DNA of 64,000 nucleotides from an uncultured bacterium (lineage in GTDB: Bacteria > Zixibacteria > MSB-5A5 > CAIYYT01). The first letter of the stretch is position 1. Each line of letters opens with the position of its first letter. The stretch is taken from positions 96,001 through 160,000 of the forward strand of contig CAVSCK010000004.1 of assembly GCA_963726455.1 (NCBI GenBank), in the 5' to 3' direction. The position numbers were made by a program, and so were the translations under genes. The notes under the pieces were generated by a model that worked only from the letters and a program-made list of their open reading frames with translations, searched no databases and had not been told where the DNA came from. Shown in pieces: positions 26,407 through 55,751 of the stretch.

Positions 26407-28432
26407 ATGTCTGACGAAACCACAACTAACAAAACCGAAAAGAAAACTACTGGAGGTGGAAAGGCCAAAGAGAAGAAAGCCACCGGCCGACTGGTGAAAG
26501 CACAAGCGGGCCAGAAAGCTCTCCAAGGCGGAGCAAAAAGGCACGACGATGGTCACCGAACTGGCGAAGAACAGTCGGCGATCTGGATACTGAGCGCAAA
26601 CGCCGCGTATCCGAAAAAGCATCGCGTCGCATCACCGACCGGAGCCCGAGATTCTCACCGTTGACGCCATCAAGCAGACCGATCTGGATGACGAGGAATA
26701 CTCGCCCAAGCAGTACCAGCATCTGCTCGATATGTACAATCAGACGCTTCAGGATATCAAAGAAGGCGAAATCATCAAAGGTCGCGTACTCGATATCACG
26801 CGTGAGTATGTCATCGTCGACGTCGGCTTCAAGTCGGAAGGCATCATTGCGCTCGACGAATTCACCGAACCGGTCAATATCAAGGTCGGCGACCAGATCG
26901 AGGTTTATCTCGAATCAGTCGAGGACCAGAACGGCCAGTTGATTCTGTCCAAGCAGAAAGCCGATTTCATGCGCGTTTGGGATCGTATCCGCGAAGCGCA
27001 TGACGCCGGTGAACTGGTTGACGGCCGTCTGATGCGCCGCATCAAGGGAGGTATCGTCGTCGATCTGTTCGGCGTGGATGCATTCCTGCCCGGTTCGCAG
27101 ATTGCGTTGCGCCAGGTGCCCGACTTCGATGAACTGATCGGCCAGACTCTGCATCTCAAGATTATCAAGCTCAACAAGAGCCGCCGCAATATCGTCGTCA
27201 GCCGCCGCGTGGTACTCGAACAAGAGCGCGAGAAAATGCGCGAGCAACTGCTCTCGCAGATCGAGGTCGGCCAGGTACGCAAAGGCGTGGTCAAGAACAT
27301 CACCGATTTCGGTGTATTCATCGATCTCGGTGGTCTCGACGGCTTGCTCCATATCACCGACATGTCCTGGGGACGCATTGCCCATCCGTCAGAGGTGGTT
27401 TCGCTCGGCGACCAGATTGATGTCAAGATTCTTGATTTCGACAAGGAAACCGGCAGAATCTCGCTCGGTCTTGAAGCAGCTCACTGAGTACCCCTGGGAG
27501 CGCATCGAAGAGAAGTTCCCGGTCGGCACGAAGGTGCTCGGCACTGTCGTGTCACTGACCGACTATGGCGCTTTTGTCGAATTGGAGAAGGGCATTGAGG
27601 GCCTTATTCACATCTCCGAGATGAGCTGGACGCAGCATATCAAGCATCCGTCCAAGATCATGCAGGTCAGCGACAAGATCGAAGCGATGGTGTTGGCGGT
27701 GGACAAGGAGAACGAGAAGATCTCGCTCGGCATCAAGCAGATGGAACCGGATCCCTGGACGATTCTCGACCAGCGTTATCCGATCGGTTCCAAGGTCACC
27801 GGCAAGGTGCGCAATCTGACGACTTTCGGCGCCTTTATCGAACTCGAAGAGGGCATCGACGGTTTGGTGCACATCTCCGATATGTCGTGGAATCGCCGCA
27901 TTCAGCATCCGTCGGAAGTGATGAAGAAGGGACAGACGGTTGACGTTGTGGTTCTGAAGATCGATCGTTCAAATCGTCGCATCTCGCTCGGATACAAGCA
28001 ACTCTTTGACGATCCCTGGCCGTCATACTCGCTTGAAGTACGGCATCGGCGCTGAGTGCGTCGGCGACATCACGCGCGTACTCGATCGCGGCGTGATCGT
28101 GGAACTCGGTAATGAAGTCGAAGGATTCGTGGCTACCCATGAACTGGGTATCCCCGATTTGGCGCGTCCTGCCGATGCGTTCAAGGAAGGTGATGAGATT
28201 GCCGCTGAAAGTGGTTGAATTCGACCAGACGCAGCGGAAGATCGTCTTGTCGGTGGACGACTACTATCGCGGCAAGGATCACACCGACCTTGACAGCTTC
28301 ATCCAGAAGCACCCGACCACCAGTGGAGCTCAGATGGCAGCGGCCATGGAGCAGGTGATTGGCGATTCTGAAGGCGTGGCCGGCACTCCTGATTCCGGCA
28401 ACGGCAACCCTGCCGAGGAAGCAAACGGCTGA
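26407..28432 (+). CDS. rpsA: 30S ribosomal protein S1 (several indels, long N-terminal extension)
   Basis: VDVGFKSEG, AFLPGSQ, DGLLHITDMSW and EGLIHISEMSW S1 repeats, in cmk-plsC-rpsA context. Confidence 0.95.
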
Positions 28433-32840: not shown

Positions 32841-33530
32841 ATGGACGCACAATCAGTTAGCTCAATTCTGAATCCGCCGGTGAAAGAGGAAGTGAAGAAG
32901 CCGGGCGACATCCTGGGCAAGGATGATTTCCTTAAGCTTCTCACGTCCCAGCTCAAGTATCAGAATCCGCTCGAACCGATGAACGATCAGGAGTTCGTCG
33001 CGCAGATGACGCAATTCTCGTCGCTGGAGCAGTTGCAGAACATGAACTCGACATTGTCGCAGAACGCGCAGTGGAACATGCTCCTGTCGCAAACCATCAA
33101 CAACACGATGGCGACGTCGCTGATCGGCAAGGAGATCACCGCGGATAGCAATGCCATTGGCATCAGCGGCGGTGACGGAGCCGATATCAGCTTTCAGTCA
33201 GCTGATTTTGCCCTGACCGGCACGATTACGATCTATGACGAGAAGGGCAACGTCGTGCGAACGCATGGACGTTAGCAGCCTATCAAGTCCGGTTCGAACT
33301 CCGTTCACTGGAATGGCAAGGACGATCAGGGCAATGACGTTGCCTGCCGGCAACTACACCTATCAGGTCAACTTGAAGGACACGAACGGCCAACCGGTTA
33401 CGGTGAGCAACTTACCGCAGCGGCACGGTCGCAGGCGGTCAAGTACGTTGACGGCCAGGCCTACTTGCTGGTGGACGGCTCCTACATTCCGCTCGCACAG
33501 ATCAGAGAAGTCAAGCAGGGGAAAGTCTGA
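32841..33530 (+). CDS. flgD: Flagellar hook-capping protein (indels)
   Basis: LGKDDFLKLLTSQLKYQNPLEPM...AQMTQFSSLEQ and Ig-domain WNGKDDQG...PAGNY. Confidence 0.92.
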
Positions 33531-33890
33531 TGACTGAATCAATTCAGAAAATCGCGGCCATCAATCCGGCGACATCGACTCAGGCGCTCGGCTCTGTCGC
33601 ACCACAAGCGCAGCCGAAAACGGCGCCGCCTGCCGACGGATTGACATTCTCCAAGCACTTGAGCGAACGTATGAATCGTCGCAGAATCGATCTGTCACCG
33701 GAGAAGCTTGATCGGTTGTCTCAAGCGGTAGACAAGGTGGCGGAAAAGGGCGCCCGCGAATCGGTGGTGTCTGCTCGATAATCTCGCACTTTTGGTCAGC
33801 GTCTCCAATCGGACGGTGCTGACAGCAATCGAAACTGAGAATATGAAGAACGGTGTTTTCACGAACATCGATTCGGTAGTGGTAGGATAG
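33530..33890 (+). CDS. Flagellar operon protein (TIGR02530-like; frameshift near 33770)
   Basis: LTFSKHLSERM..R, KGARES and C-terminal VFTNIDSVVV. Confidence 0.85.
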
Positions 33891-33948
33891 AAACAAAAGC
33901 AGGCCGGACCTCCTTGAGGAAGCCTGTGATTATGGAGGTACAGAAGAC

Positions 33949-35875
33949 ATGTTAGCATCATTATTCGCAGGAGTCGCAGGACTAAGAAACCATCAGGTGC
34001 GAATGAACGTAATCGGCAACAACATCTCGAACATCAACACGATCGGCTTCAAGTCCGGTCGTTCGATCTTTCGCGAAGCGCTGATCCAGACTCTGCGCGG
34101 CGCCGGTCGTCCGTCGTGCAGTTTCAGGCGGTACCAACCCGATTCAACTTGGTCTGGGTATGGAAGTGGCCTCGATTGACAACTTGTTCACACAGGGTGG
34201 TCTGGAACTCACCGGTCAGATCACTGACCTGGCGATTCAGGGCAACGGCTTCTTCCTGTTGTCAGATGGCAATTCGAAATTCTACACTCGCGCCGGAGCG
34301 TTCGGCTTTGACGCCAACAGTTATCTCGTAAATCCTTCCAACGGTCTGTACGTTCAAGGCAAGATGGCTGATGACACCGGAACCATTCCGGCGACAGCCA
34401 CCGTCGGTAATATCAAGCTGCCGTTTGGACAGCAGGATCCTGCCAGACCGACCTCGCGAGTTGATTTTGGCAATAACCTCGATGCCTCAGTCACCCGCTC
34501 CGAGGCCGCGATTACGACCGGCACTACCCCGACGAACGGAATCACTCAGGTTTCCGGCGCGGCACGTGACGGCGCGGGCGGTGTCCATGTCATCACGATT
34601 ACCGGTGCCCAGGCAACGCAGGCGTCTCGCGCTGGTGCGCACACTGGTCAGCCCGCCGGCGGCACTGACAGGCAGTGAAACTCTTGGCGCGCTTGGCGTC
34701 ACATCGACGACTCTAACTCTGGCAGTTGACGGCGGTTCGCCGATCAATATCACCGGCTTGACGACGACCTCGACGGTCAACGATTTGGTGATTGCTGCAT
34801 CGACATCATCGATGGCGTCGACGCCAAACTTGACAGCGGCGAAATTCTAATCACTCGCACGAAAGCAGGCGCCTCATATAACATCGCTACCAACACGGCC
34901 GTCGCAGGTGACATCGCCAACCAGATTTTTGGCGTGGCTGCGGCTTCGGCCTTCCAGGTCAATAACGGTATCGATCACTCCTTCCAGGCGCAGGATGTGT
35001 TTACACCTTCAGTGGGCGGCACGACCGTGACCAGTAATCTGGGCATCACGGTTAATTCGAATACCGGTCTTGCGACCGGCGTGACCGGTCTTGCCGAAGG
35101 AGGTATCACCGTGAGCTCCGGCGATACCGGTCTTTTGGCCGGCACCGCTTCGATTACAACTAAAGATACCGACAAGGCAACTTCGATCACCGTGTATGAC
35201 TCACTGGGCGGCACGCACGTGATGATGACGAACTTCATCAAGTCGCATGAACCGAACAAGTGGTACTGGAACATCTCGATGCAGGGTGGCGAGATCATCC
35301 AGTCGGGTGCTTCCGGGACGGTGACCTTCAACTCTGATGGTTCGCTGCTTCGCTTCGAGATCGACGGCGGCGCCGACAAGTTCTCCTTCGATCCGAACAA
35401 TGGCGCCGGGCTGACTCAGATTGATCTGTTTGCCGGTTCCTCGGGCAAGTACGACGGCCTGACCGGATTCTCCGGCACGGAGACGGTCGCGGCCGTGAAA
35501 CAGAACGGTTACGGCATGGGCATTCTGGACAAGATCTCGATCGACCCGACCGGTCTGATCATCGGCATATTCACCAACGGCGTCTCGCGTAATCTGGCGC
35601 AGATCGTGCTGGCCGATTTCAACAACCAGGCGGGCTTGATAAAGTCGGGCGAGTCGCTATTCCAGACGTCGGCAAACTCCGGCGAAGGTATCGAAGGTGT
35701 GGCAGGCGAAACGGTTTCGGCGACGATATCGTCAGGAGCTCTGGAGTCGGCCAACGTCGATCTGGCGCAGGAATTCACCAACATGATCATCGCACAAAGA
35801 GGATTCCAGTCCAACGCCAGGGTGATCACAACTTCCGACAACATGCTTGACGATCTGGTCAATCTGAAGAGGTAA
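33949..35875 (+). CDS. flgE: Flagellar hook protein (about 3 indels)
   Basis: VIGNNISNINTIGFK, DLAIQGNGFF, YTRAGAF and LESANVDLAQEFTNMIIAQRGFQSN. Confidence 0.95.
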
Positions 35876-38319: not shown

Positions 38320-38792
38320 TGCGGCACGTCCCCTCCTCCTGGCTGATTGGCCTGACGGCGCTTCTGATGAGCTCACCGCTTCTGGCTCAGGACAAAGAAA
38401 TCCCTTCGCCCGCAAGTGATCTCGGCCCGACCTTGCTGCAGCTTGCCGGCGCGCTGCTGCTGATAATTGTCATCATCTATGTCTCTATCTGGTTGATGAA
38501 GAAATACTCCACCGGTCGTATGGCCGGCGGCGGTAACCTGATTGCAATCGTCGAGAGACGCCATCTGACTCCAAAGCAGGTGCTCTATCTCATCAAAATA
38601 GGGGAGAAGCATTTATTGATCGGCGCATCCGACTCCGGCCTGCAGAAGCTTTCTGATATCGAGAATCTCGAAATCAAAAAGCCGCAACCGAGCGCCACTT
38701 CGCCTGTCTCCAAATTCAGTCAGGCGTTGCGACAAGCGAAAGAAACGCTTATCCCGCGCACGATGATCAAAGAAAAGAGCGTCGAAGTATGA
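38319..38792 (+). CDS. fliO: Flagellar biosynthesis protein FliO/FliZ
   Basis: TM segment then [26 protein letters not shown], between fliN and fliP. Confidence 0.85.
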
Positions 38793-39551
38793 CGTCCTGC
38801 AAAGTGATCATCAGCGTCGTCGTGATCCTGCTGTTAGTCATGGCGGCGGGCGCCCAGTCGCAATCTTTACCGAAAATCAGCTTACAGATCGAAAAGGGTT
38901 CCGACGCCAAAGGCCTGTCCACGACTCTGCAAATCGTTCTGTTAATGACCGTTCTGGCGCTAGCGCCGTCGATCCTGGTCATGATGACGTCGTTCATTCG
39001 CATTATCATCGTTCTGTCCTTCGTGCGACAAGCGCTCGGCACCAACCAGTTACCACCTATCGCAGCTTATCATGGGTGTGGCGCTGGTTATGACCATGTT
39101 CGTCATGTCGCCCGTTATTTCGCAAGTCCACGAGAAGGCCTGGACTCCCTACATGAACGGCGAAATTACCCAGAAACAACTTTACGACGAGGGCATGAAG
39201 CCGCTGCGCGCGTTTATGCTTCAGCAAACGCGGGAGAAAGACCTGGCGCTGTTCGTGAAATTCTCCGGCATGCAAAAACCCGCTACCCAGGCCGACATCC
39301 CGACTCACGTGGTCGTTCCGGGCTTCATACTTTCCGAATTACGAACGGCCTTCCAAATTTCGTTCATCATCTTCATTCCTTTCCTTGTCATCGACATGGT
39401 CGTGGCATCGGTCTTGATGTCAATGGGTATGATGATGTTGCCACCCGTACTGGTCGCGCTACCTTTCAAGATTCTATTATTCGTCATGGTTGATGGCTGG
39501 TATCTGATCGTCAAGTCACTTTTGGACAGTTTCCACGTAGCAGGAGGATAA
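38789..39551 (+). CDS. fliP: Flagellar export protein FliP (frameshift near 39055)
   Basis: [30 protein letters not shown] and [14 protein letters not shown]. Confidence 0.95.
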
Positions 39552-43908: not shown

Positions 43909-45007
43909 AAACTTCCAAGCCGGCACCATTCAAGGTGCTCTCGATTTGGTCAAGAAGGAATTCGGCCAGCAGGCCGTGATTCTCAAGACCGACATTATCA
44001 AGGACAGCGGACGACGTCTATTCACCGTCACCGCTGCCAGGGACTTTCAGGACGTGGCCGCTGCCACCGCCGAGGCGGAGTTTGCGGCGCCCCTTCAGCA
44101 GGCAGCGCCTGCGCCGATCGCCGTTCGGGTGCCACCACCGGTCGCCACAGTACCGGAGCTGCCGCCGGCCCAACCGACGCCTCCGGCTCGTCCGAACAAG
44201 CAAACTGAATCAGCGACCGGCAAGGGCCGTCTTGAATCCGCGATTCTGGACGTGATGCTGCCGGAATTGCTCACCGGAGAAATCAAACGCCACTATCTGG
44301 CATTGCGCATCAACGAAGTCGAATCCGATTTGGCACTTCAAATCTGCCGCAAGCTGCAACAATCGAAGAAGACGAGTCGCGAAGATCTTGCCAAGATCAT
44401 CCGCGACCTGACCTCAAAGCAGGCGCCGTTCCCCGAAAACGAAAAGAATGTCGTATTCGTTGGCCCGTGCGGCTCCGGCAAGAGCTCGCTGTTGGCAAAG
44501 TTTGCCGCGGAGATGGTTTTTAATCGTCGCCGTCAGGTGACGCTGTCGACGCTCGACAGCTTCCGTCCCGGCGCCGAACACGAAGTTAACAGTCTCGCCG
44601 ATGTTCTCAGTGTCGTGCAGGAAAACGGCAGTAGCCGGCGTTCACGTTCCGCCTCCTGTCATCTGATCGACACCAGCGGACTGTCCATTGGTGATGAAGA
44701 TGGCTTCGTCGAACTCCAAACCCAGTTGAATCAGATCGAAGGCCGCTTTACGGTTCTCGTTCTGTCGCTGACGACCAGTTGGAAGAACAATCGCCGCTTT
44801 CTCGAATACTGCCTCCCGCTCGGTATCAATGCCATCGCCCTGACTCAGCTCGACCTCGCGCAGAGTTGCGGCGCGATGATCAACATTGCCGCCAAAGATT
44901 ATCCGCCGATTGTCGGCGTTAGTGATTCGCGGATGCCCACCGGCAGAGTGATGCCGTTTGATGCCCGCCGTTATCTCGACAAGTTGATCGGAGACGAAAA
45001 TGACTAA
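43898..45007 (+). CDS. flhF: SRP-type GTPase FlhF (divergent)
   Basis: N-terminal VKKEFGQQAVIL, then GPCGSGKSS, DSFRPGA, DTSG and TQLD, between flhA and flhG. Confidence 0.85.
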   Translation: MLIKNFQAGTIQGALDLVKKEFGQQAVILKTDIIKDSGRRLFTVTAARDFQDVAAATAEAEFAAPLQQAAPAPIAVRVPPPVATVPELPPAQPTPPARPNKQTESATGKGRLESAILDVMLPELLTGEIKRHYLALRINEVESDLALQICRKLQQSKKTSREDLAKIIRDLTSKQAPFPENEKNVVFVGPCGSGKSSLLAKFAAEMVFNRRRQVTLSTLDSFRPGAEHEVNSLADVLSVVQENGSSRRSRSASCHLIDTSGLSIGDEDGFVELQTQLNQIEGRFTVLVLSLTTSWKNNRRFLEYCLPLGINAIALTQLDLAQSCGAMINIAAKDYPPIVGVSDSRMPTGRVMPFDARRYLDKLIGDEND

Positions 45008-45872
45008 CGGTTCGCCGTCAGCCCTTTCACGTGCAACGACGATCGCTGTCTGCTCAGGCAAAGGCGGTGTCGGCAAATCCACGGTTGCGCTGTTTGTTGC
45101 ATCGCGACTGGCGGAAGCCGGCAAACGCACCCTGCTTATCGACACCGACTTCGGCTTTGGCGATATCACTACCATGACCAACCTGACGCCGCTGGTCGGG
45201 TTCGAACAGATGCTGTCAGGCGCGGCGCGACTCGAAGATGCATTACTCCACGTCGGACCGAAACTGTCGATCATGGGAACGCTTCCGGGATCATCCTTCG
45301 ATATCGCTTCGCTGACCCGGTCCGGTCTGGACAATTGCCGCAAGATCGACGCCGAATTCGAAGTCATCGTGTTCGATACTCCTTCGACTCTCGATAGCTT
45401 CAATCTCGGAATTATCGCCGCCAGCGATTTGGCGATCTCCGTGACAACTTCGCGTATTCCCGCAATTGCCGACTCCTACGTGCAGCTCAAGAAAATCACC
45501 GGCTCCGGCAGTCGGGCGGCGATCTGTTTTCTCGTGAACCAGGTCGACACCGAGGTTGAAGGGATGCAGGCCACCGCAAAATTCGCCGAACTGCTTGACC
45601 GTTTTCTGGGACGAAAAGTCCCGTCAGTCGGCATGATCGAAAACGAACCGAATATCGAGAAGGCCGTCGAAGGCCAGTCGCTGCTTGAACTTAGCCGACG
45701 CCCCGGGGGTTTCGGCAAGAAGGCCGAATTAGTAATGAAAACACTTCTGGATAAACATCTGAAAGGGCCACGGACCGGCTGTTCAATTTGGGAACAGATG
45801 TCGTCGACGATTTTTCTAAAAAACGAAATCAGCTTTGACGATAACAAACTGCTAGTCCAGGTGCAAGGGTGA
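45000..45872 (+). CDS. flhG: MinD-like ATPase FlhG/FleN
   Basis: SGKGGVGKST, LIDTDFG, FDTP and IADSY. Confidence 0.85.
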   Translation: MTNGSPSALSRATTIAVCSGKGGVGKSTVALFVASRLAEAGKRTLLIDTDFGFGDITTMTNLTPLVGFEQMLSGAARLEDALLHVGPKLSIMGTLPGSSFDIASLTRSGLDNCRKIDAEFEVIVFDTPSTLDSFNLGIIAASDLAISVTTSRIPAIADSYVQLKKITGSGSRAAICFLVNQVDTEVEGMQATAKFAELLDRFLGRKVPSVGMIENEPNIEKAVEGQSLLELSRRPGGFGKKAELVMKTLLDKHLKGPRTGCSIWEQMSSTIFLKNEISFDDNKLLVQVQG

Positions 45873-45928: not shown

Positions 45929-46687
45929 ATGAACGTATCAAACGCATGGAAGGACTATCGCACTACCGGCGATCCGGAAATCAGAAAACAACTGCTGTCG
46001 CATTACCTGCCGCTGGTCAAAAATGTTGCCGGACGGCTGGCGATGGGGTTTCCCAAGACGGTTGAAGTCGCTGATCTGGTCAACACCGGTGTCATTGGTT
46101 TGATCGAGGCATTCGCCAACTTCGATCCGAATCGCGGCATCAAGTTTGAGACTTACGCCGTGCCACGCATTCGCGGCGCCATTCTCGACGAATTGCGCAG
46201 TCTCGACTGGGTGCCTCGCTCGACGCGTGCCAAGTCACGCGAACTGGAACGCGCGGTGGTCGAACTGGAAAAGCGCCACGGCCGCAAGCCGTCGCACCGC
46301 GAACTGGCGAAATACATGAACATCACGCTGGACGAATTCGCCTCCACTTTGGACGACGTCTCCGGCGCCACGCTCCTGTCTCTGGACGAGATGATCTATC
46401 GCGAGGAAGACAATCGCCAGATTCCGCGCATCGAAACCCTGGAAGGGGCACACGACATGTCGGTGCTTGGTGAAATCGAGGAAATGGAATTGCGCGCCTA
46501 CCTCGGTGTGGCCATTGCCAATCTGACTGAACAGGAGCGCCTGGTTATCGCGCTCTATTACTATGAAGAACTCACCCTCAAGGAAATCGGCGAAGTCATG
46601 CAGATTTCCGAGTCGCGCGTGTCTCAGATACATACTAAGGCAGTATCCAAGCTGCGCAACCTGGTGAGGGAAAAATTCGCGATGTAG
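45929..46687 (+). CDS. fliA: RNA polymerase sigma factor FliA (sigma28)
   Basis: RIRGAILDELRSLDWVPRS and LYYYEELTLKEIG..ISESRVSQIH. Confidence 0.96.
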   Translation: MNVSNAWKDYRTTGDPEIRKQLLSHYLPLVKNVAGRLAMGFPKTVEVADLVNTGVIGLIEAFANFDPNRGIKFETYAVPRIRGAILDELRSLDWVPRSTRAKSRELERAVVELEKRHGRKPSHRELAKYMNITLDEFASTLDDVSGATLLSLDEMIYREEDNRQIPRIETLEGAHDMSVLGEIEEMELRAYLGVAIANLTEQERLVIALYYYEELTLKEIGEVMQISESRVSQIHTKAVSKLRNLVREKFAM

Positions 46688-46699
46688 GCGGTGACACTT

Positions 46700-46984
46700 A
46701 TGGTGGATTCCATTGCCGTACCGGACAACTTTGCCAAAACGCCGCTGGCCGAACGGGTCAATCAACTGCAGAAGGCAGCGCCCGACGTCGACCAGCACCA
46801 GGCAGGGCAAGTCGTACAGGAAAAGCACATTCAGCGGCAGCACGAACCCATCGCGCCTGAAAAAACTGACGAAGCCGTGATTCATCGCGACAAAGAGGAA
46901 AAAGAGCAACCTAAGAGAGAGAAGAAAAAACAGCAGGATGATGCTGACAAAGATAAGAAAGGCGGTCTGGATCTGACCGCATAG
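46700..46984 (+). CDS. Small charged hypothetical protein of the flagellar operon
   Basis: Q/E/K-rich, ends KGGLDLTA, tightly coupled to fliA. Confidence 0.65.
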   Translation: MVDSIAVPDNFAKTPLAERVNQLQKAAPDVDQHQAGQVVQEKHIQRQHEPIAPEKTDEAVIHRDKEEKEQPKREKKKQQDDADKDKKGGLDLTA

Positions 46985-46996
46985 CAGGAGCTAGTT

Positions 46997-47413
46997 ATGG
47001 ACACATGGAGTGTAGCACAACTGATATTGGACGCCATCTTCGCCGTAACCGTCATCGGCGCAGTCCTCGGATTCTTATACTTTCGCGAGAAAAGACTAAT
47101 CCGCCAACTGAGAACGGCGCCGGTAATCATGCCGCATGCTGAGACGGCCGCCAGACCCCACATTATAGATTTGCCACCAACGGTTGCGCCGACAATCGCC
47201 GAACCGGCGCCCGCCAAAACGCGCGCCAGCCGTCCACCGGCTGCGCCCAAACCGCAGAAAGCACCGCGGCGGCCTGCCACTCTATCGGCAAATCGCGCGG
47301 AACGATACCTGGAAGCTGTTCGCATGTATCGGCAGGGGAGCGATAAATCAACCATCGAAAAGGCGCTTGGCATCTCCTTCATGGAACTGGAGTTGCTGGG
47401 GAGATTGAAATAA
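46997..47413 (+). CDS. Single-TM protein with C-terminal HTH-like tail (DUF2802/DUF6115-like)
   Basis: TM segment, Pro/Ala linker, and YLEAVRMYRQG...IEKALGISFMELEL. Confidence 0.65.
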   Translation: MDTWSVAQLILDAIFAVTVIGAVLGFLYFREKRLIRQLRTAPVIMPHAETAARPHIIDLPPTVAPTIAEPAPAKTRASRPPAAPKPQKAPRRPATLSANRAERYLEAVRMYRQGSDKSTIEKALGISFMELELLGRLK

Positions 47414-47438: not shown

Positions 47439-48635
47439 ATGCTAATGAGTAGTGAATCACCGTTCTTTCTGACCAAAGTTGAGTGCCCGGTCTGCAAGAC
47501 GATCAACGAGTTCGAAACCATCAAAGTCGGCGCGTACGTGGAAGATGACCATGACACCGACTTCTGCCCCAAAGGCCGTCATTGGAATAACGCCAGATAT
47601 GAAGTCTACAACCCGCTGCTCTTCTTTATGGCCACGTGCGAGAATTGCTTCTATACGCGCGAGTTCAACCAGTCGTTTCGCGACTGGAGAAATGACGCCG
47701 CATTCCGCACCTATCGCCAGAAACCGATCCAGGCACGCCATCTAGAACAGTTGGCTGTTGACGGCTCGGTATTAAAAATTTTGGGCAAGGCACGCGATCC
47801 GCAGGGAAATCCGTTTGCCACCTCCATCGTGAAATTCCTTCTCGGCGTCTACGACGAACTATTGCTGGAGCATCCGCATAAGCTCGACATCGGGCGCTTC
47901 TATCTGCGTATTGCCTGGCTCTTCCGCGAACATTGCGGCGAAGCGACGGGCGCCAACCCCAAGGTAGTACATTTCACGCACGACATCGAAAGGGCTATCG
48001 GCAAGCTGAAGCAGTCGCGCGATAATCTCGCGCTGAATCTCAATCAGGTATCCGATCTGGTTGACGCTGCTTTAGGCAAACGTGACGGCGCCATGAGTGA
48101 GTCGTCGCAATTCCTGACGGTTGGCGAAACACTTAAGTCAAACCTCGCCCGAATCTCTGAATTGGAAGCCGCATTGACCGGTACCATTTCGCAAATGGGG
48201 CAGGCCATTACCGACAATCGACGGTACCTTGATCGGGATGCACTCTCCGGACAGCCCGGCGCCATCGCGTTCGGCGGCTACCATTCCTTCGAAGAATTCA
48301 TGAGTTCAGTAAAATCGCTCTGGGAGTTCGCTCCCCTCAACGAAAATGACGCGTTGTTATACGCAATAGAGTTTTACAAGTCGGCTCTGGAGGACGGTCA
48401 CGAAATCCAGTCCGGCAATCAACAGATCCAGGCAACCTACTTGATCGCCGAATTGTCCCGCCGGGTGGGCCGGAATGTTGAAGCCAAACAATACTTCAAC
48501 AACACCATCAAGGCCGGACAGCAATTCATCTTTGAGAATCGCACCGATCAAACCCGCACCGCTCTGGCCAGAAAGATTGTTGAATTGGCCATTGCCCAGG
48601 GCAAGTCGAATCTCGCAGCCATCAAGGGTGACTAG
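47439..48635 (+). CDS. DUF2225-family protein (Zn ribbon plus TPR-like helices)
   Basis: CPVC...DTDFCP...NP...CENCFY, YLRIAWLFR and YLIAELSRRVG. Confidence 0.8.
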   Translation: MLMSSESPFFLTKVECPVCKTINEFETIKVGAYVEDDHDTDFCPKGRHWNNARYEVYNPLLFFMATCENCFYTREFNQSFRDWRNDAAFRTYRQKPIQARHLEQLAVDGSVLKILGKARDPQGNPFATSIVKFLLGVYDELLLEHPHKLDIGRFYLRIAWLFREHCGEATGANPKVVHFTHDIERAIGKLKQSRDNLALNLNQVSDLVDAALGKRDGAMSESSQFLTVGETLKSNLARISELEAALTGTISQMGQAITDNRRYLDRDALSGQPGAIAFGGYHSFEEFMSSVKSLWEFAPLNENDALLYAIEFYKSALEDGHEIQSGNQQIQATYLIAELSRRVGRNVEAKQYFNNTIKAGQQFIFENRTDQTRTALARKIVELAIAQGKSNLAAIKGD

Positions 48636-49393
48636 TGGAGCAAACTAAGAGTCGCGGACAGACTATCATCGGTCCCCTGCAAATCTGGGACAAACTCGAA
48701 CTGGTGTTCGAGGAAGACAAAAGGCAGGGACGCTATCGCACGCGCATCGAAGATGTGAAGGGTGAAGTGATGATGATCGACCGTCCGTCCTTGCTGACAG
48801 GTGATGCCCTCTTTAGCGTGGGCTCGAACTTCGTCGCCTGGTTCATCAAATCCGACTCTGCCTACACTTTCCCCGGGAAGGTTCTGCGCAAGGCAGACAC
48901 TGAACTCGAGGCCTACTGGATAAACAAACCGAAGCAAGTCGATCGCAACCAGCGCCGGCGGTTCTTCCGTATTGCCGATGATTCGCCGGTGTCCATAATC
49001 CTGGTCGACCATCTGATCAGGGAATCTGAACCGAAAGCCGAGATCAAGGAATTTGAGGGTGTCACGATTGACATCTCCGGCAACGGCATGCAGGTTCGCA
49101 CCAAGCTGGACGCCTTGGTTGGCGCCAAGGTCTTGCTCGCACCCCGGATTAAAGAACTTAAGCGTGACCTCTTTCTCTTCGGCATCATTCGCCGCAAGGA
49201 GAAGAACGAGGATGTCTTCACTCGTTACGGCATCGAATTTTTCACCGTCGAAGAAGTGCGTCAGCTGTTCAGTTCGTTTCCCATGCAACGGTTGCCTAAA
49301 GAATACCACAGTTTCAATGAACAATTACGTACCGCGCTGTTGAATTACATCTTCGCGCGGCAACTTGAAATGAAGAAAAAAGGACTTATCTAA
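48635..49393 (+). CDS. Flagellar brake-like PilZ protein (YcgR/MotI type)
   Basis: N-terminal YcgR-like barrel and c-di-GMP motifs QRRRFFR and DISGNG. Confidence 0.85.
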   Translation: MEQTKSRGQTIIGPLQIWDKLELVFEEDKRQGRYRTRIEDVKGEVMMIDRPSLLTGDALFSVGSNFVAWFIKSDSAYTFPGKVLRKADTELEAYWINKPKQVDRNQRRRFFRIADDSPVSIILVDHLIRESEPKAEIKEFEGVTIDISGNGMQVRTKLDALVGAKVLLAPRIKELKRDLFLFGIIRRKEKNEDVFTRYGIEFFTVEEVRQLFSSFPMQRLPKEYHSFNEQLRTALLNYIFARQLEMKKKGLI

Positions 49394-49412
49394 TACAGAC
49401 AGGAGAAAACCA

Positions 49413-49940
49413 ATGAACAAGCAAGATCGAAATACCACGACGCTAAGCGACAGTTTCGTGATTAAGCAACCCCTGCAACTTTACAAGACCCGCAGACGCC
49501 GCTACGTGCGGCTGGAAATCGCGGCGCCCATCGTATTTGCGCCCATCAACATCGACCGTCCTCTCGATCAGGATCACCTCGATCAGCAGACCGGAACGAT
49601 ACTGAACATTTCCGGAGGCGGCGCATTGCTCGCCTGCCGCAAGCAGCTGGCGGAGAACAGCTACGTTTCCATGAATCTTGAACTCGCAGGGCTGGAGATT
49701 CTTACCGGTGTAGTCGGCAAAGTAAAACGCATCGACGACGACGGCGACGGTGAATATCTCGTCGGCGTGGAATTCTGCACCGAAAAGGAACTGGTCTCTG
49801 TCTTCGGCGAATCGAACATCGGCAGCGTGATCTCCAGTTTCGACAACCGTGTGAAGCGTTACTTGCTGCGTTATGTGTTCGCCAACAAGGTCAGTCGCCG
49901 GTTGCGCGATGGCGGTAAGGAAGATGAGAACGAAGAATAA
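49413..49940 (+). CDS. PilZ domain protein
   Basis: RRRYVR, NISGGG and GVEF. Confidence 0.88.
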   Translation: MNKQDRNTTTLSDSFVIKQPLQLYKTRRRRYVRLEIAAPIVFAPINIDRPLDQDHLDQQTGTILNISGGGALLACRKQLAENSYVSMNLELAGLEILTGVVGKVKRIDDDGDGEYLVGVEFCTEKELVSVFGESNIGSVISSFDNRVKRYLLRYVFANKVSRRLRDGGKEDENEE

Positions 49941-50529
49941 GCTACTCATGGCCCTGATGCTGGTGGCTGTCCTCTCCATCAGCATCACTGGTCAAAACGA
50001 AAAAACTGTGCTGCTGATTGTCAACACTCCCGGCAGTACCTGGACTGATTGCGGCCTCCTGGAGCGGCTCACGAGGTACCTCAATGATCACAATGGCATC
50101 GCCCTGGTGCAACCTCAGCAGGCCGACGAGCTCAACCGCCAGATGGCGGGACGCTTCGATAAGCAAGTGCTCCTGGCCGAAGGGGTGACCCAGAAATTCC
50201 GTTACATCTTCTGGTGTGACGTGGTCAAACAGCGGCTCGACATCGAGAACGGATTCAGTCTGCCGCTCTTTTTCAAACAGAAGCGCGTCAAGGCCTCGCT
50301 GGAAGTTGAATACCACATCCTTGATTGTCAACGTGGCCGTTCCGTCAGCGTTGACCGCATCTGTGTCGAGCGGCACGGTCCGGCAACACTGCAATCTCTC
50401 GATTACACCGAAGCAGATCCGAATCTGCTCCTGACGTACGTTGAGAAGAAAGCGCTCTTCGATCGGCTCGAAGAAGAAGCCGCCAGGAAGCTGCTGGCCA
50501 GTTTCGACGACGTGTCCCGGCAGCGGTAA
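49924..50529 (+). CDS. Hypothetical exported protein
   Basis: Signal peptide MRTKNKLLMALMLVAVLSISITG followed by an alpha/beta body. Confidence 0.65.
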   Translation: MRTKNKLLMALMLVAVLSISITGQNEKTVLLIVNTPGSTWTDCGLLERLTRYLNDHNGIALVQPQQADELNRQMAGRFDKQVLLAEGVTQKFRYIFWCDVVKQRLDIENGFSLPLFFKQKRVKASLEVEYHILDCQRGRSVSVDRICVERHGPATLQSLDYTEADPNLLLTYVEKKALFDRLEEEAARKLLASFDDVSRQR

Positions 50530-50643
50530 TGCCGTTGTCGATTGTCTTTACTGCCTGACGCTCCGATAGGAGCGCGGGCCCGCAAAATAGGACTTTCCGC
50601 CCCGGCGCATACTGCCGGGACGGCGCAAAATTGGATCGGGCAA

Positions 50644-52434
50644 ATGTATCCTTACGGTCATACATCCGGTGAAGCCGATGCTTCAGGTGAGGCGCAAGTT
50701 CCCCGAACATTGCCTCCGCTAAGTCAATTTGACGCCATTCCAATCGCTGTCTTCGCTGCTGATCACGAAGGTGCAATCTATTATACCAATCAGCGGTTTG
50801 ACCAAATTATTGCCAGCAACAACTGCGCGACCGACTATTGCCGCAATCTTGGCGAACTCGAGGATCTTATGTCCATCGAATTGGCCCTCCCGGCATACCG
50901 CGCCATGGAGCAGCGAATTCCTTTCAACTCTGAGCAGTTCATCTTCACCGGCAGCGATGGTCAATACTTCCTTCTCTCAATTTCCCTGAGCCCGCTCATA
51001 ACCGACGGTGCCTGCTGGGGCGTGTTTGGCGTGCTCCAGGACGTGACCCAGGTCGCCGACGCCAGCGAGAGTCTGCGGCGGCGCATCAAGGAACTGAACA
51101 CCATCGAAGAAATCTCGCAGGCGCTGCATTCGACCATGAAGACCGACGACATCCTGCGCATCATCCTGACCGGCGCCACCTGCAAAGAAGGCCTTGGTTT
51201 CAACCGGGCTTTCCTGTTTCTGCTCAATGAACACAACATGGTACTGGAAGGCCAGATGGCCATCGGTCCCTCGAACGCCGAGGAAGCCGGCCGCATCTGG
51301 GGGGCAATCGAACCGGGAACGCGCACGCTGTCGCAGGTTCTGGCGCATTACCTGCTGAACGTCGCCAATCAGGACATCGAAGTTAATCACATTGTCAGGT
51401 CACTCAAAATCGATCTGTCATCCGCCACTATCTTCCGCCGCGTCGTCCAGACCGGTCGCTGGTGTAATATCGACAGCGAATCGCAGAACGTGGTGCACGA
51501 TACTGAAGTGCTGCGCATTCTCAACACTCATCGCTTTGCGATAGTGCCGTTGTTGGCGCGCGGCAAGACTATTGGCACAATTGTTGCAGACAACTTGATT
51601 ACCGGCAAACCGATTGACAACAATACCGTCCGCCTGCTGCAAATCTTCGCCGACCACGCCGCCACCGCTATCGAGAAAGCCCGGCTCTTTGAAGAAATCG
51701 AAATCAAAGCCGAGTCGCTGGAACGCGCCAATTCCAAATTGGAGCAGGTGCAAAAACAAATCGCCGCTATCGAAAAAAGCTCTCTGATGGCAGAGATTAC
51801 CCACAAGATCGCTCACGAGCTACGCAATCCGATCACAATTATCGGCGGATTTGCGGCGTTGTTAAATCGCGGCCTGAATCCTGCCGATAAACTAAGCGAG
51901 TATGGCAGGATCATCGTGGACGAGACTTTGAGGGTCGAGAAAGCGCTGGAAGACGTTCTGAACTTCTCCAAATCGTTCGCTCAGGATCGCGAAGCTTGTG
52001 ACTTGAGGGAGATCGTTCAGGCGACAACTGATGTTCTCGAACAAACGCATTCCCATATTGAAATGCGCTTGGACCCGCCTGTTGAGGATTATCCGCTCAT
52101 GATCCGCGTTAACCGCGATCAGACCGTTCAATCGCTGCGTGACATAATTGAGGCGGTTGGCTCGTTCATGCCTGATAACACGCCGTTGCGGCTGAGCTTG
52201 CGAGATGATAGCGCCATGCGGAGAATCGAATTGCATTGGCAGATTCCCGGCATCGAGCGGCAACGGATAACCGAGTTGCTGACAGACATGCTGGAGAGCC
52301 GGACCTCCGGTTCGTCGTTGCGATTGACGTTGGCGTTCGAGACGGTGCGTTACAACGGCGGTGAACCCGGGCTCGCGGCCAGGTCAGCCGACGACCAGTA
52401 CCTGTTTATCGAGTATCCGTCACTGGAGGAATAA
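50644..52434 (+). CDS. PAS-GAF histidine kinase-like protein with degenerate ATP-binding domain (start uncertain)
   Basis: PAS ending GVLQDVT, GAF GLGFNRAFLFL, intact H-box AHELRNP, and unrecognisable N/G1/F/G2 boxes. Confidence 0.85.
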   Translation: MYPYGHTSGEADASGEAQVPRTLPPLSQFDAIPIAVFAADHEGAIYYTNQRFDQIIASNNCATDYCRNLGELEDLMSIELALPAYRAMEQRIPFNSEQFIFTGSDGQYFLLSISLSPLITDGACWGVFGVLQDVTQVADASESLRRRIKELNTIEEISQALHSTMKTDDILRIILTGATCKEGLGFNRAFLFLLNEHNMVLEGQMAIGPSNAEEAGRIWGAIEPGTRTLSQVLAHYLLNVANQDIEVNHIVRSLKIDLSSATIFRRVVQTGRWCNIDSESQNVVHDTEVLRILNTHRFAIVPLLARGKTIGTIVADNLITGKPIDNNTVRLLQIFADHAATAIEKARLFEEIEIKAESLERANSKLEQVQKQIAAIEKSSLMAEITHKIAHELRNPITIIGGFAALLNRGLNPADKLSEYGRIIVDETLRVEKALEDVLNFSKSFAQDREACDLREIVQATTDVLEQTHSHIEMRLDPPVEDYPLMIRVNRDQTVQSLRDIIEAVGSFMPDNTPLRLSLRDDSAMRRIELHWQIPGIERQRITELLTDMLESRTSGSSLRLTLAFETVRYNGGEPGLAARSADDQYLFIEYPSLEE

Positions 52435-52435
52435 G

Positions 52436-52798
52436 ATGAATCATACAATTATGTGCGTCGATGATGAGCCGAACTTGCTACGACTCTACGAGCAAGTGCT
52501 CTCGGAGGACGGTTTCACCGTTGTCTCTGCGCACTCAGGTAACGAGGCCATCTCGAAAATCCAATCCCAGCCGGTCGACCTCGTCGTTCTCGATATTCGC
52601 ATGGATGACAAGGACGGCCTGGAAGTGCTGCGCGAACTCAAATTGAAAGATCCCGATCTGCCGGTCATCCTGCACTCGGCATACAACACCTACAAGTCAG
52701 ATTTCACCAGTTGGCTGGCGGTCGATTATCTCGTTAAGAGCGCCGACCTCACGCAGTTGCGCACGCGCATCAGAGAGTTATTGGAGGCGAATGACTGA
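52436..52798 (+). CDS. Single-domain response regulator
   Basis: CVDDE, LDIRM, HSAY and YLVKS. Confidence 0.92.
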   Translation: MNHTIMCVDDEPNLLRLYEQVLSEDGFTVVSAHSGNEAISKIQSQPVDLVVLDIRMDDKDGLEVLRELKLKDPDLPVILHSAYNTYKSDFTSWLAVDYLVKSADLTQLRTRIRELLEAND

Positions 52799-53150
52799 GT
52801 CACACGATGAATTCCTGAAGCTGGTCGACCACGTTGCCGAGTTGGTGGACGAGATCAAATTGATGAGTCTCAATCTCACTATTGCCCACGCCCGTCTGCG
52901 GCTCAACGACAACGCCTTTCAAGTCGTCGGCCGAAACTTTCAGCAACTGCTCGATACGGCTGCCGCCGGTGTCGAGGAAGCGGCGGTCACACTCAAGAAA
53001 GCCCGCGGCGAGAAGCTCACCGAAGATGAGTTGACGCAGAATCAATCGGACTTGGAAGCCAGTCTCGACCGGGTCAAATCAGAAGCCGAACAGATTATCA
53101 ATACCGTGTTAGCGATCAAGAAATCCCAGCGCATTAACCGACAAGTCTGA
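52791..53150 (+). CDS. Stand-alone chemoreceptor (MCP) signalling-tip-like protein
   Basis: IKLMSLNLTIAHARLRLNDNAFQVVG aligns without gaps to [26 protein letters not shown]. Confidence 0.6.
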   Translation: MTESHDEFLKLVDHVAELVDEIKLMSLNLTIAHARLRLNDNAFQVVGRNFQQLLDTAAAGVEEAAVTLKKARGEKLTEDELTQNQSDLEASLDRVKSEAEQIINTVLAIKKSQRINRQV

Positions 53151-53171
53151 GCCAAGGAGACGAACATCTCA

Positions 53172-53780
53172 ATGAAACTGATCCTTCTTGTTACCGATGT
53201 CGGGGGCCCCGTAGCTTTGCATTCGCTGCTGTCCGAGATGCCTGAGCATTTTGGCCATCCCATTGTCGTGTTACCCAGCTCTGAACTGGGACTGTTGGAA
53301 TCTTCTGCCGCCGCGCTGCGGCGGACAATTTCACTTCCCATCGAAATGATTCAGCCCGTAACTGCTCTCAGGGCCGGCTGTGTCTTTTTCGGCGCCCCGA
53401 ATTCGTGCTATCGTCCGACTTTCCATGACGGCCGCGTCAGCATCGAAGCCGTGGGCGTGAATCGGGAAGAGGAGTACGTCAGGAAGACCCTCGAGAACTT
53501 CGCCGGAACATACGGCGATGAATTGACCGTTGTGTTCCTGTCCGGGCGAGGACGGAACGAGGAAATCCAATCGTGCTGTTCCACTTTGGAAAGATCCGGC
53601 TGCCGTTTGATCGTTTTCCACCGCTCGGAAACCGTCGTGTTCGATATGGGACAATGTGTGCTCGAAGAGTGTCCCTCGGCGGTGGAGCTTACGTCATCCG
53701 AAATTGTTACTTTAGTTACAACTTCTTCGCGAACCTTGCCGGCACGGTCAAAGAAACCGTCAAATACCACCGGCAAGTAA
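53172..53780 (+). CDS. CheB methylesterase-fold protein lacking the catalytic triad
   Basis: KLILLVTDVGGPVAL, PIVVLPSS, VVFLSGRGRN and ETVVFDM are colinear with the CheB catalytic domain. Confidence 0.75.
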   Translation: MKLILLVTDVGGPVALHSLLSEMPEHFGHPIVVLPSSELGLLESSAAALRRTISLPIEMIQPVTALRAGCVFFGAPNSCYRPTFHDGRVSIEAVGVNREEEYVRKTLENFAGTYGDELTVVFLSGRGRNEEIQSCCSTLERSGCRLIVFHRSETVVFDMGQCVLEECPSAVELTSSEIVTLVTTSSRTLPARSKKPSNTTGK

Positions 53781-53804
53781 ATGCGGCACCCCGTCTGCCG
53801 ATAA
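53778..53804 (+). promoter_or_regulatory. sigma28 (FliA) promoter
   Basis: TAAA-N15-GCCGATAA, a perfect consensus 30 bp before the receiver gene. Confidence 0.8.
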
Positions 53805-53834
53805 ATCTATTAAGAGGGGGAGAAAGGATTCTCA

Positions 53835-54242
53835 ATGGGTGAACTACAGCGAGCGCGCATCCTGATTGTCGACGATGAAGAATTCATGCGCAAGCTGCTT
53901 TCCAGCATTCTTCGCAAAGCCGGGCTTGACGCACTCTACGCCGAGACCGGAGAGGAAGCTTTGCAACTGCTGAGCGAAAACAAATGCGATATCGTCATTT
54001 CCGATGTGATGATGTCCGGAATGAGCGGAATTCAACTTCTCAAACAGGTCAAGGAGCTCTATCCGAACATCGCCTTCATCATCATGACCGGTTTCGCAGA
54101 TTCCTGCACCATTAAGGATGCGCTCATGGAGGGCGCGGATGAGTATATCACGAAGCCGTTTAAGAATCACGAAGTAACCCTGGTCGTTGAGCGGGCATAT
54201 TGGCGTATTCAGTCTGCCCGCAAATCGACGGAGATAGTCTAG
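53835..54242 (+). CDS. Single-domain response regulator
   Basis: ILIVDDE, SDVMM, MTGF and YITKPF. Confidence 0.92.
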   Translation: MGELQRARILIVDDEEFMRKLLSSILRKAGLDALYAETGEEALQLLSENKCDIVISDVMMSGMSGIQLLKQVKELYPNIAFIIMTGFADSCTIKDALMEGADEYITKPFKNHEVTLVVERAYWRIQSARKSTEIV

Positions 54243-54248
54243 GCGCAA

Positions 54249-55751
54249 ATGGCCGGTAACGACGACGACAAATATCTCAAGTCTGCCAAAGGCATCATGC
54301 TTTCGGTCAACGGTGAAGCCACGAAAGCTTACATAAAGCTGGTAGCGGCTGAACTTGAAGGCGTGCAGCTTGTGCCCGAACTCATCTATGGCCTCTTGGC
54401 GGAAGCGGGAGTTGTTTACGGCATCAAGAACGATGTTGTCGACTTGCTCGTCGCTAGTCCGTCCTACAACGAGAAGGTCGTCGTAGCTGTCGGCGATTCG
54501 CCGATACCGGGCACCGATTCCCAGTTGGAGTACTTGTTCGAGACTGAGGTCAAGCGCGAACCGACCGTCGATGCCCAGGGACACATCAATTACAAGGATT
54601 TGAACTTCATTCAGAACGCCAAGGCGGGGCAGGTGCTGGTGCGCAAAATACCCGCGCTCCCGGGCGCTCCCGGAAAATCTGTTTTTGGAAAGGATATCGC
54701 GCCCCGCAACGGTCGTGAACGTACGTTCATTCGCGGTTCCAATACTGACATCGCACCGGATGGCCTGAGCCTGATCGCCGCCATCGACGGCACCATCGTC
54801 TACAAAGCCGGCGCCGTCACCGTGCAGCCCTCACAGAAATTGCCCGGTTCGATCGATGTCGCCACCGGAAACATCAATTGCCTTGGTTCTCTTAAGGTCG
54901 CCAAGAATATCTGCAGCGAATTCAAGGTTGTCGTGGGAGGGGATCTGGAAGTCGGTGGCAATGTCGAGGACGCCATAATCGAGGCCGGCGGCAATGTTCT
55001 GGTGCACGGTGGTTTCTTCGGTTCCGGCAGGGGCAATATCACTGCCGGTGGTGACGTTACGGTCAGATACGCCGAAAACCAGAAGATTCGCGCCGGAGGC
55101 GTAGTCTATATCGGTGGGGAAGTCCTCAATTGCGACATCTACGCCGGCGATGCTGTGATCGTGCAGGGGAAAACCGGTCGTATCGCGGGCGGCAACGTCG
55201 CGGCCAAGCACTTGATTCGTGTCTCCAAACTTGGCAATGACGCATCGGTCGCCACGCATGTGCACGTCGCTTTCGATATGCAAATGATGAACCGCATGCG
55301 CGAGGTCACCCGTGAACTAGAGCGCCTGGCAAGCGATGAGAAACGAGTCAAAGACGCGCTCGTCTTATTGTACCGCCTCGAATTGAACGGCCAGCTTCCA
55401 TCAGAAAAAAAGGAAGCGCTGTTACGATTCAAAGACTTTATGAAAGAGCTGCCGACCCAGAAGGAAGCTCTTAAGAACGAGTGCGACCAACTCCGGCAGA
55501 AACTGCAGGAGCTTAGCGGGGCGCGCGTGGCCGTCGAAGATGCCGTATACGCCGGCGCCATAATTCACTTCGGTCCCGTCTACAAAGAAATCCTCGAGGA
55601 CATTAACCAGGGCACCGTCTTCGAAAAGACCGGCGAATCGATTACTCGGTTGTTGTTCGACAATGACCGTGAACGCCGCATCGAAGACCAGTGGCGCAAA
55701 GCCAAGAAGGAAGCCCAGGCCGCAACCCACGCCGAACCGGTCACGGCGTAA
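54249..55751 (+). CDS. FapA / DUF342 family flagellar assembly protein
   Basis: GVVYGI, INYKDLNFIQN, TGNINCLGS, beta-helix repeats and a C-terminal coiled coil. Confidence 0.88.
   Translation: MAGNDDDKYLKSAKGIMLSVNGEATKAYIKLVAAELEGVQLVPELIYGLLAEAGVVYGIKNDVVDLLVASPSYNEKVVVAVGDSPIPGTDSQLEYLFETEVKREPTVDAQGHINYKDLNFIQNAKAGQVLVRKIPALPGAPGKSVFGKDIAPRNGRERTFIRGSNTDIAPDGLSLIAAIDGTIVYKAGAVTVQPSQKLPGSIDVATGNINCLGSLKVAKNICSEFKVVVGGDLEVGGNVEDAIIEAGGNVLVHGGFFGSGRGNITAGGDVTVRYAENQKIRAGGVVYIGGEVLNCDIYAGDAVIVQGKTGRIAGGNVAAKHLIRVSKLGNDASVATHVHVAFDMQMMNRMREVTRELERLASDEKRVKDALVLLYRLELNGQLPSEKKEALLRFKDFMKELPTQKEALKNECDQLRQKLQELSGARVAVEDAVYAGAIIHFGPVYKEILEDINQGTVFEKTGESITRLLFDNDRERRIEDQWRKAKKEAQAATHAEPVTA

Follow-up and report, generated by a model that had tools for sequence, protein, structure and literature searches.

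A chemoreceptor-tip protein and a kinase-derived relay candidate in the layered tail of the Zixibacteria fliA operon

What are relatives of chemotaxis proteins doing in the tail of a flagellar operon, in a stretch of DNA in which no cheA, cheW or cheR match is found? The question is raised by 64,000 nucleotides of the genome of an uncultured member of the Zixibacteria (assembly GCA_963726455.1, contig CAVSCK010000004.1, positions 96,001 to 160,000), here called the window. Behind fliA, the gene for sigma-28, ten co-oriented open reading frames (ORFs) at 47439–55751 follow one another, either overlapping slightly or lying no more than about 115 nt apart, as described in an earlier, sequence-only reading of the window. 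That reading saw in them chemosensory parts that may have been turned into a non-catalytic scaffold or phosphorelay, which would link phosphorylation and c-di-GMP to flagellar assembly or switching. Here, we find that the parts are indeed repurposed and conserved, but that the run is layered and modular, and that its core is not tied to the motor. The genome of the window (100% complete) is referred to as G000; other genomes, loci and families of genomes carry G, L and f numbers, respectively.

The most widely retained gene of the module encodes a 119-aa protein which, judged by profile comparison, is a true homologue of the chemoreceptor tip. A profile built without any rows from methyl-accepting chemotaxis proteins (MCPs) and searched against the 16,869 ORFs of G000 recovers the protein itself and exactly the five MCPs (E 7e-15 to 9e-13; next match 0.85). 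The same profile finds solved MCP signalling domains in the PDB (best E 6e-11), and in a library of 1.8 billion proteins it ranks about 75 proteins of ~120 aa above full-length MCPs. Set against the MCP signalling domain (PF00015; Thermotoga maritima 2ch7, 4jpb), the tip protein is in register over about 110 residues and shares the ALN..AI.AA[RK] helix. In MCPs the tip is the part that works with CheA and CheW, and the helix next to the hairpin faces them. In the alignment of tip proteins this helix, which lies ahead of the hairpin, keeps its N (61/63), A (52/63) and R/K (58/63), and the L after the hairpin turn is kept in 60/63. The GExGRGF turn, which is variable, and the Glu of IEAAR are not kept. 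Unlike an MCP, the tip protein has no sensor, HAMP or full methylation bundle, and it persists without CheA, CheW or MCPs. In Pfam the window protein has no PF00015 match, and the tip proteins of two relatives score 20.8 and 20.9 bits against a cut-off of 34.6. Its structural model has three helices (pLDDT 71.5); a fold search with this model gave no match at E 0.001, only generic helical bundles. We dropped an interpretation of the VEEAA stretch as a methylation site because the stretch is not conserved in f6 and f18.

The tip gene and its neighbours are arranged as follows (all on the + strand).

45929–46687, +, fliA (sigma-28); Pfam Sigma70_r2/r3/r4, synteny
46691–46984, +, conserved 97-aa ORF with no assigned function; dN/dS 0.09
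46997–47413, +, 138-aa ORF with an N-terminal hydrophobic stretch; weak DUF2802 match, below cut-off
47439–48635, +, DUF2225 protein; Pfam, E 5e-21
48635–49393, +, PilZ1, YcgR-like PilZNR-PilZ protein; Pfam, c-di-GMP motifs intact
49413–49940, +, PilZ2, stand-alone PilZ protein; Pfam, motifs intact
49927–50529, +, exported protein; signal peptide by inspection, no Pfam family
50644–52434, +, PAS-GAF-DHp-pseudoCA protein (the kinase), 596 aa; Pfam PAS-GAF-HisKA, no HATPase_c
51863–51890, +, predicted internal sigma-28-type promoter, TAAA-N16-GCCGATAA, within the DHp coding region
52436–52798, +, REC1, single-domain receiver; residues D9, D10, D53, S81, K101
52791–53150, +, stand-alone chemoreceptor-tip protein, 119 aa, three helices
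53172–53780, +, pseudo-CheB, a methylesterase domain with no REC and no Ser-His-Asp triad; Pfam CheB_methylest
53778–53804, +, predicted sigma-28-type promoter, TAAA-N15-GCCGATAA, overlapping the pseudo-cheB stop, upstream of REC2-fapA
53835–54242, +, REC2, single-domain receiver; residues D13, D14, D57, T85, K107
54249–55751, +, FapA (DUF342); Pfam FapA_N+FapA, E 3e-59

Pfam bears out the families that had been assigned to this tightly coupled run, except that the tip protein lacks an MCP match and the exported protein has no family; among the NCBIfam matches listed, no cluster protein is named above cut-off. In REC1 and REC2 the acidic pair, phospho-Asp, Thr/Ser and Lys are all in place, and both PilZ proteins keep RxxxR and D/NxSxxG, as had been stated.

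The tip protein is widespread, and it outlives the flagellum. At a census threshold of E 1e-17, stricter than the MCP cross-matches, it occurs in 216 of 251 genomes, single-copy except in two, while FliG occurs in 199 of the same genomes and the CheA dimerisation domain in 148. (Two copies, through overlap of contigs or true duplication, are present in the assemblies G008, on C3 and C135, and G219, on C193 and C325.) At that threshold it was not found in f4, f9, f17 or f19; f5 genomes have weaker matches (5/5). FliG is present in none of the eight f11 genomes, none of the four f12 genomes, 4/15 in f16 (three at E 1e-4 or weaker) and 7/14 in f5, and neither flagellin (0/5) nor FlhA (0/5) was found in the aflagellate genomes tested, where the two sets overlap by two-thirds and the genomes are 94–100% complete (G089 is a single contig, G020 two). 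The tip protein is nonetheless kept in f11 (8/8), f12 (4/4), f16 (12/15) and three aflagellate f5 genomes. In aflagellate lineages its gene has a dN/dS of 0.09, and only fliA is lower, at 0.06 (8 pairs, dS <2 pooled). The single-contig genomes G089 and G217 have no PF00015 match other than the tip gene, and no CheW was found in them; one lone CheW each, and no MCP or CheA match, is seen in G044, G127 and G084, of which the first two also retain pseudo-CheB and the tip protein. What is retained, then, is a core of the tip protein and a PilZ protein, often with DUF2225 and the kinase/REC1 pair. Since this core is kept where no motor or flagellin is found, motor switching cannot be its only job. 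The tip protein, being kept even in relatives without flagella and chemotaxis, probably has a regulatory job beyond both that has not been described before.

In the f11, f12 and f16 loci the order is fliA, DUF2225 or another HisKA protein (not always present), PilZ, sometimes protein X (see below), kinase, REC1, tip gene, flgN, csrA and fliW, with flgN missing from part of the f16 loci; in aflagellate f5 loci it is fliA, DUF2225, PilZ, tip gene, a flgI remnant, csrA, fliW and flgN. In f11, locus L147 retains flhA next to fliA. In the apparently aflagellate loci L135–L147, L170–L172, L200, L218 and L227, fliA stands with csrA, fliW and mostly flgN where the flagellar operon has been replaced, often just ahead of thrS. 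Two aflagellate f5 genomes have a shortened FlgI (P-ring) gene behind the tip gene (L171:6434-7249, L172:4831-5667), L171 and L145 have a weak FlgM-like ORF, and L139 has a 540-aa ORF with a weak Flagellin_IN match. The further HisKA protein directly behind fliA in f16, f12 and f11 (L135:11980-13377, L142:6986-8257, L145:8567-9325) has degenerate or partial ATP boxes. The stretches L155:8145-8642, L156:5886-6617 and L044:7303-8232 cover lone CheW genes of genomes that gave no MCP or CheA match, one next to hprK-hpf-rpoN, together with a CheV-like CheW-REC gene that neighbours a short kinase in G000. In Streptomyces, the FliA-family sigma factor of the WhiG-RsiG pair is likewise kept without flagella and linked to c-di-GMP; Zixibacteria FliA differs in that it stays with CsrA, FliW, FlgN, PilZ and the tip protein. 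The excerpts available of one study (PMC10746217) held no precedent for sigma-28 retention.

Loci were fetched around tip, pseudo-CheB or kinase matches, with long contigs favoured, and they share one order in about 15 families: fliA, the 97-aa ORF, the 138-aa ORF, DUF2225, one to three PilZ genes, the exported protein, in some cases a protein X of GAF and DHp only, then kinase, REC1, tip protein, a variable slot, REC2 and fapA. The module comes after fliA in nearly all loci that extend that far. No CheA was seen within the cluster loci, and CheW was seen there only in f3. The order is thus conserved, as the sequence-only reading would have it, but not as one fixed ten-gene module: pseudo-CheB, kinase/REC1, PilZ1, REC2 and FapA are lost or swapped separately. 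In f1 and f6 (pooled Nei-Gojobori, up to 8 pairs, pairs with dS >1.5 excluded), dN/dS is 0.03–0.17 for all cluster genes, including 0.03 for the DHp, 0.16 for the pseudo-CA, 0.10 for the tip and 0.17 for pseudo-CheB. The cluster is under purifying selection, and its decay is excluded. Each gene aligns full length and in a single frame to its same-genus orthologue, so residues were lost by substitution, as proposed, and the cluster is not an indel artefact, even though fliP upstream (38789–39551) lies in two frames against a relative and is frameshifted. The rpsA and hook gene regions (26732–28432, 33235–35875) also look split in the ORF list, probably through assembly indels.

Of the three losses of catalytic or signature residues that had been claimed, the kinase turns out to be a partial case. 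Its N, G1 and G2 boxes are gone, as are the Ser, His and Asp of CheB and the hairpin turn of the MCP, whereas its phospho-His (His391) and its HExxN motif (HELRN) are intact, and the His is invariant in 20/20 aligned kinases. The CA domain is still predicted to fold (model pLDDT 79; kinase fold matches to E 2e-14) and gives CA profile matches. Among in-cluster kinase rows outside f12 and f16, G1 and G2 occur together in 0/53, and the N box pattern is seen in two f11 rows only. ATP boxes are absent from f11 and from a 50-row group of flagellated families; the orthologous kinases of f12 and f16 (10 loci) keep all of them, which does not support the sequence-only proposal as worded. A quick version of the kinase tree needs two changes in ATP-box state, and a single origin is also compatible with it. 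In L209 an intact kinase, REC1, tip gene and fapA are consecutive, a plausible ancestral state.

The His and REC1 go together. Among 81 tip-anchored loci, 61 have a kinase with the His and REC1 (L047 was read by eye), in three the kinase lacks its His and REC1 is absent (two events), and 17, one of them at a contig edge, have neither kinase nor REC1; no locus is discordant. Because His and REC1 agree in 81/81 loci, REC1 is likely the cognate partner of the DHp, and the His would matter without ATP. The kinase is predicted to be a His phosphotransferase or phosphatase; for His-dependent transfer between two receivers, which it may carry out, what was observed is the co-occurrence of His and REC1. 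Of the earlier proposal, a phosphorelay fits the pseudo-kinase, and independence from the canonical che system is supported. Many families also have protein X, a further kinase that is truncated to GAF, coiled coil and DHp, lacks a CA domain and lies ahead of the main one (for example in L095–L134, and L175:7759-8703); its His is kept in 20/27 aligned, and it is absent from the window.

The pseudo-kinase adds one more case to a known class of proteins. ChpT of Caulobacter reportedly combines a phospho-His DHp with a degenerate ATP-binding domain and is paired with single-domain receivers. PhyT of Sphingomonas melonis has the same two domains plus a sensor domain, works with single-domain receivers and regulates an alternative sigma factor, according to the excerpts available (PMC5898713); by analogy, it is the closest tested precedent. 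As in PhyT, ChpT and Spo0B of Bacillus, which are kinase-derived His phosphotransferases, the window kinase combines an intact His with a degenerate but folded CA and a single-domain receiver. It differs from them in its HisKA-type HELRN box, its cytoplasmic PAS-GAF input and its independent origin in a Zixibacteria kinase that f12 and f16 retain in intact form. REC1-type receivers were also surveyed across phyla. In the best 80 of 310 loci, the tip gene is present in 51, titled Zixiibacteriota, uncultured Ignavibacteria or bacterium, and neither tip gene nor fliA was found in 10 loci titled Eisenbacteria, Effluviviaceae, Deferribacteres, KSB1 or Desulfuromonadales; this suggests that the tip module is likely restricted to one phylum.

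Behind the tip gene, the run changes character. Pseudo-CheB is well supported as a CheB homologue (PF01339, 47 bits against a cut-off of 24; E 1e-21 to solved CheB 3sft and 1chd, over the whole domain), with which it also shares the GGP loop, and so the predicted MCP-tip and CheB homologies both stand. Unlike CheB methylesterase, it has no REC domain and no catalytic triad: Asp, Ser and Asn occupy the Ser, His and Asp columns, and among stand-alone members the full triad is found in 0/37 and the His is lost in 37/37. It occurs in 22/81 loci, all of f1, f6 and f18, which group in the kinase tree, and even one f1 locus (L132) has lost it. This triad-less protein is an insert specific to that clade. 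In 37/81 loci the slot holds a divergent, intact receiver, and none has both; as to the idea of a split CheB, pseudo-CheB and the slot receiver are mutually exclusive, each marking whole clades. In f3, CheW precedes the slot receiver in all four loci fetched, so that different MCP-binding folds stand directly behind the tip gene in f3 and in f1/f6/f18. For neither of the two families, tip protein and triad-less CheB, do the libraries searched record a function, and our literature searches turned up no description of the cluster, of a stand-alone tip protein or of a triad-less CheB family.

Promoter sites separate this part of the run further. The sigma-28 consensus is TAAA-N15/16-GCCGATAA, and exact matches number two in the window, both in the cluster, where 0.04 are expected, and ten genome-wide. 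The site on the pseudo-cheB stop has the same offset in 12/15 f1 loci under strict matching and 14/15 with one more mismatch, with a free spacer. The site within the DHp shows synonymous constraint across 16 f1 sequences (GCC 16/16, GAT 16/16), with CTA/TTA Leu in 13/15 against 7% genome use; from its position it is predicted to drive transcription of REC1, the tip gene and pseudo-cheB in f1. In other families, 15/81 loci have a sigma-28 site within about 100 nt of the tip-gene end, and a relaxed scan gives 189 sense and 60 antisense sites. As conserved sites stand ahead of the slot or REC2, we take the slot, REC2 and fapA for a separate late unit, one that is absent from 16 aflagellate loci. 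The single-unit view of the sequence-only reading is not supported here, REC2-fapA having its own conserved predicted promoter in f1. Outside the cluster, one exact site (G000:C5:498854, -) lies 52 nt ahead of an rpoN-like gene, a possible link from sigma-28 to sigma-54, and others precede a receiver and a dehydrogenase-like gene.

From the homologies, residue states, co-occurrence, selection and promoter conservation described above, we infer the biochemical steps, the tip partners and the link to FliA/CsrA output as follows. Our best reading, which we believe about as much as we doubt, is a relay like that of PhyT and ChpT plus an exapted receptor-tip adaptor, acting in a FliA/CsrA/c-di-GMP circuit and encoded by a phylum-wide, two-layer tail of the fliA operon. 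Layer A (DUF2225, PilZ, the sensor pseudo-kinase, REC1 and the tip protein) would be wired into the FliA/FlgM and CsrA/FliW circuit and not into the motor itself. The pseudo-kinase would be incapable of autophosphorylation and would receive phosphate from another kinase; its PAS-GAF input would most likely gate His-dependent transfer to or from REC1, as in PhyT and ChpT, or alternatively the DHp may be a phosphatase on REC1. The tip protein would be a chemoreceptor hairpin that keeps its ALNxAIxAK docking helix and serves, outside chemotaxis arrays, as a soluble adaptor with the PilZ receptor and DUF2225. Layer B (the swappable slot of pseudo-CheB, receiver or CheW, then REC2 and FapA) would be a late unit under sigma-28 control, acting at the completed motor and in most cases disappearing along with it. 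More tentatively, and with more doubt than belief, the tip may have been exapted once, early in Zixibacteria, as a soluble adaptor of this switch that outlived flagellum and chemotaxis. The module would then replace the missing sigma-28 checkpoint in aflagellate lineages, which cannot export FlgM and flagellin; flagellated lineages would have turned the kinase into a phosphotransferase and plugged receptor-binding folds (CheW, dead CheB) behind the tip gene.

Several observations weigh against this best reading. Loss of the His amounts to two independent events only. In G000 we found neither a cognate phosphodonor nor the paralogous intact kinase/REC1 pair that some genomes have elsewhere, and no partner of the tip protein was identified. 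The kin loci L200, L218 and L227 keep fliA, PilZ, REC1, REC2 and flgN (and, in L200 and L227, fliW), with a His-less X and no kinase or tip gene; an aflagellate remnant can thus do without the tip protein, and REC1 can remain after its kinase has gone. The f11 loci and most of those in f16 lack DUF2225, the tip gene in f1 also appears to be under a sigma-28 promoter, blurring the two layers, and co-retention beside fliA may reflect operon position.

In the sequence-only proposal the run encodes a single scaffold without catalytic activity: pseudo-CheB would dock on the mini-MCP, and together with the receivers and PilZ brakes it would couple phosphorylation and c-di-GMP to flagellar assembly or switching. 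Two MCP-binding folds behind the tip gene in separate lineages, the persistence of pseudo-CheB, tip and lone CheW in G044 and G127, and the motility roles of FapA and DUF2225 elsewhere speak for it. We nevertheless consider it unlikely: pseudo-CheB belongs to one clade and is dispensable there, a plain receiver fills the slot more often, and the core survives without a motor. The link of pseudo-CheB to the tip protein is one of adjacency in that clade, and a sigma-28 site, often present between tip gene and slot, can explain adjacency. A complex prediction for the two (score 0.01 against a mark of 0.32) speaks neither for nor against the proposal, as its controls did not fold either. The parts could instead be unrelated accessories of the flagellar regulon, accreted behind fliA, each doing its own job and, the kinase/REC1 pair aside, sharing no mechanism. 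Almost any one of the genes is lost alone somewhere, internal promoters split the run, and a kinase and REC1 of this type are also found away from flagellar genes, among paralogues and in other phyla; against this, the order is fixed across some 15 families and the same few genes outlive the flagellum in f5 and f11/f12/f16 under selection, which makes such a bundle decidedly unlikely.

A further alternative, improbable in our view, draws on the canonical system of the same genome. Beyond the window, G000 has a complete che operon (C4:654-659 kb: cheR, two receivers, a 207-aa gene, cheA and intact cheB), of the kind that the sequence-only reading suggested looking for, and it has five MCPs and four CheW-domain matches. 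The tip protein, whose CheW/CheA-facing helix is its conserved part, could titrate CheW and CheA from the array as a decoy or modulator, with pseudo-CheB shielding receptors from demethylation. CheA is, however, found in far fewer genomes than the tip protein, which is conserved even where no MCP, CheW or CheA is found. Finally, a decaying chemotaxis remnant or assembly artefact, which the frameshift in nearby fliP might suggest, is scarcely credible given full-length, single-frame genes, the same substitutions across families and the low dN/dS. Selection on a stand-alone tip where CheA and CheW were not found points to a second use of the tip surface. The locus also provides a natural series from kinase to phosphotransferase, with intact, ATP-dead, His-dead and deleted states. 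Where lineages have retained sigma-28, CsrA and FliW but no flagella, the question arises of how these are controlled once export-based checkpoints are gone. All the proteins involved are small and soluble and lend themselves to expression in a laboratory host.

The remaining genes of the run offer leads from other organisms. YcgR, FlgZ and MotI are c-di-GMP brakes, and stand-alone PilZ proteins are adaptors. PilZ1 shares the PilZNR-PilZ architecture and both c-di-GMP motifs of YcgR-type brakes, from which the locus differs in having one to three tandem PilZ genes behind fliA, the short one persisting without a motor: PilZ1 is dispensable (absent in L054, L055, L062 and L064), and PilZ2 is retained in aflagellate lineages. 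G000 has three GGDEF and two HD-GYP ORFs by motif. In Leptospira, the DUF2225 member LEPBIa0550 is needed for normal motility, as stated in excerpts of PMC12236494; the Zixibacteria protein is of the same Pfam family and is kept in f5, f12 and part of the f16 aflagellate loci. FapA has motility roles in Vibrio and Helicobacter in the excerpts available of two sources (PMC13277936; 10.64898/2026.10.23.761471), the second of which places it at the H. pylori motor cage. The window protein, of the same Pfam family, is paired with a receiver under a predicted sigma-28 site. For the exported protein, which is absent from aflagellate loci, there is a CsgG-like lead only (CsgG cluster score 0.94; family on 35% of members), and the 97-aa ORF was not seen in the aflagellate loci examined. 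Upstream in the window, FliM has the LSQDEIDALL motif that had been noted, at 36742. FlhG (45000–45872; also L095–L125 in f7 and f14, L113 and L173) diverges in several families, and some loci lack it; the score of flhF against its family is low.

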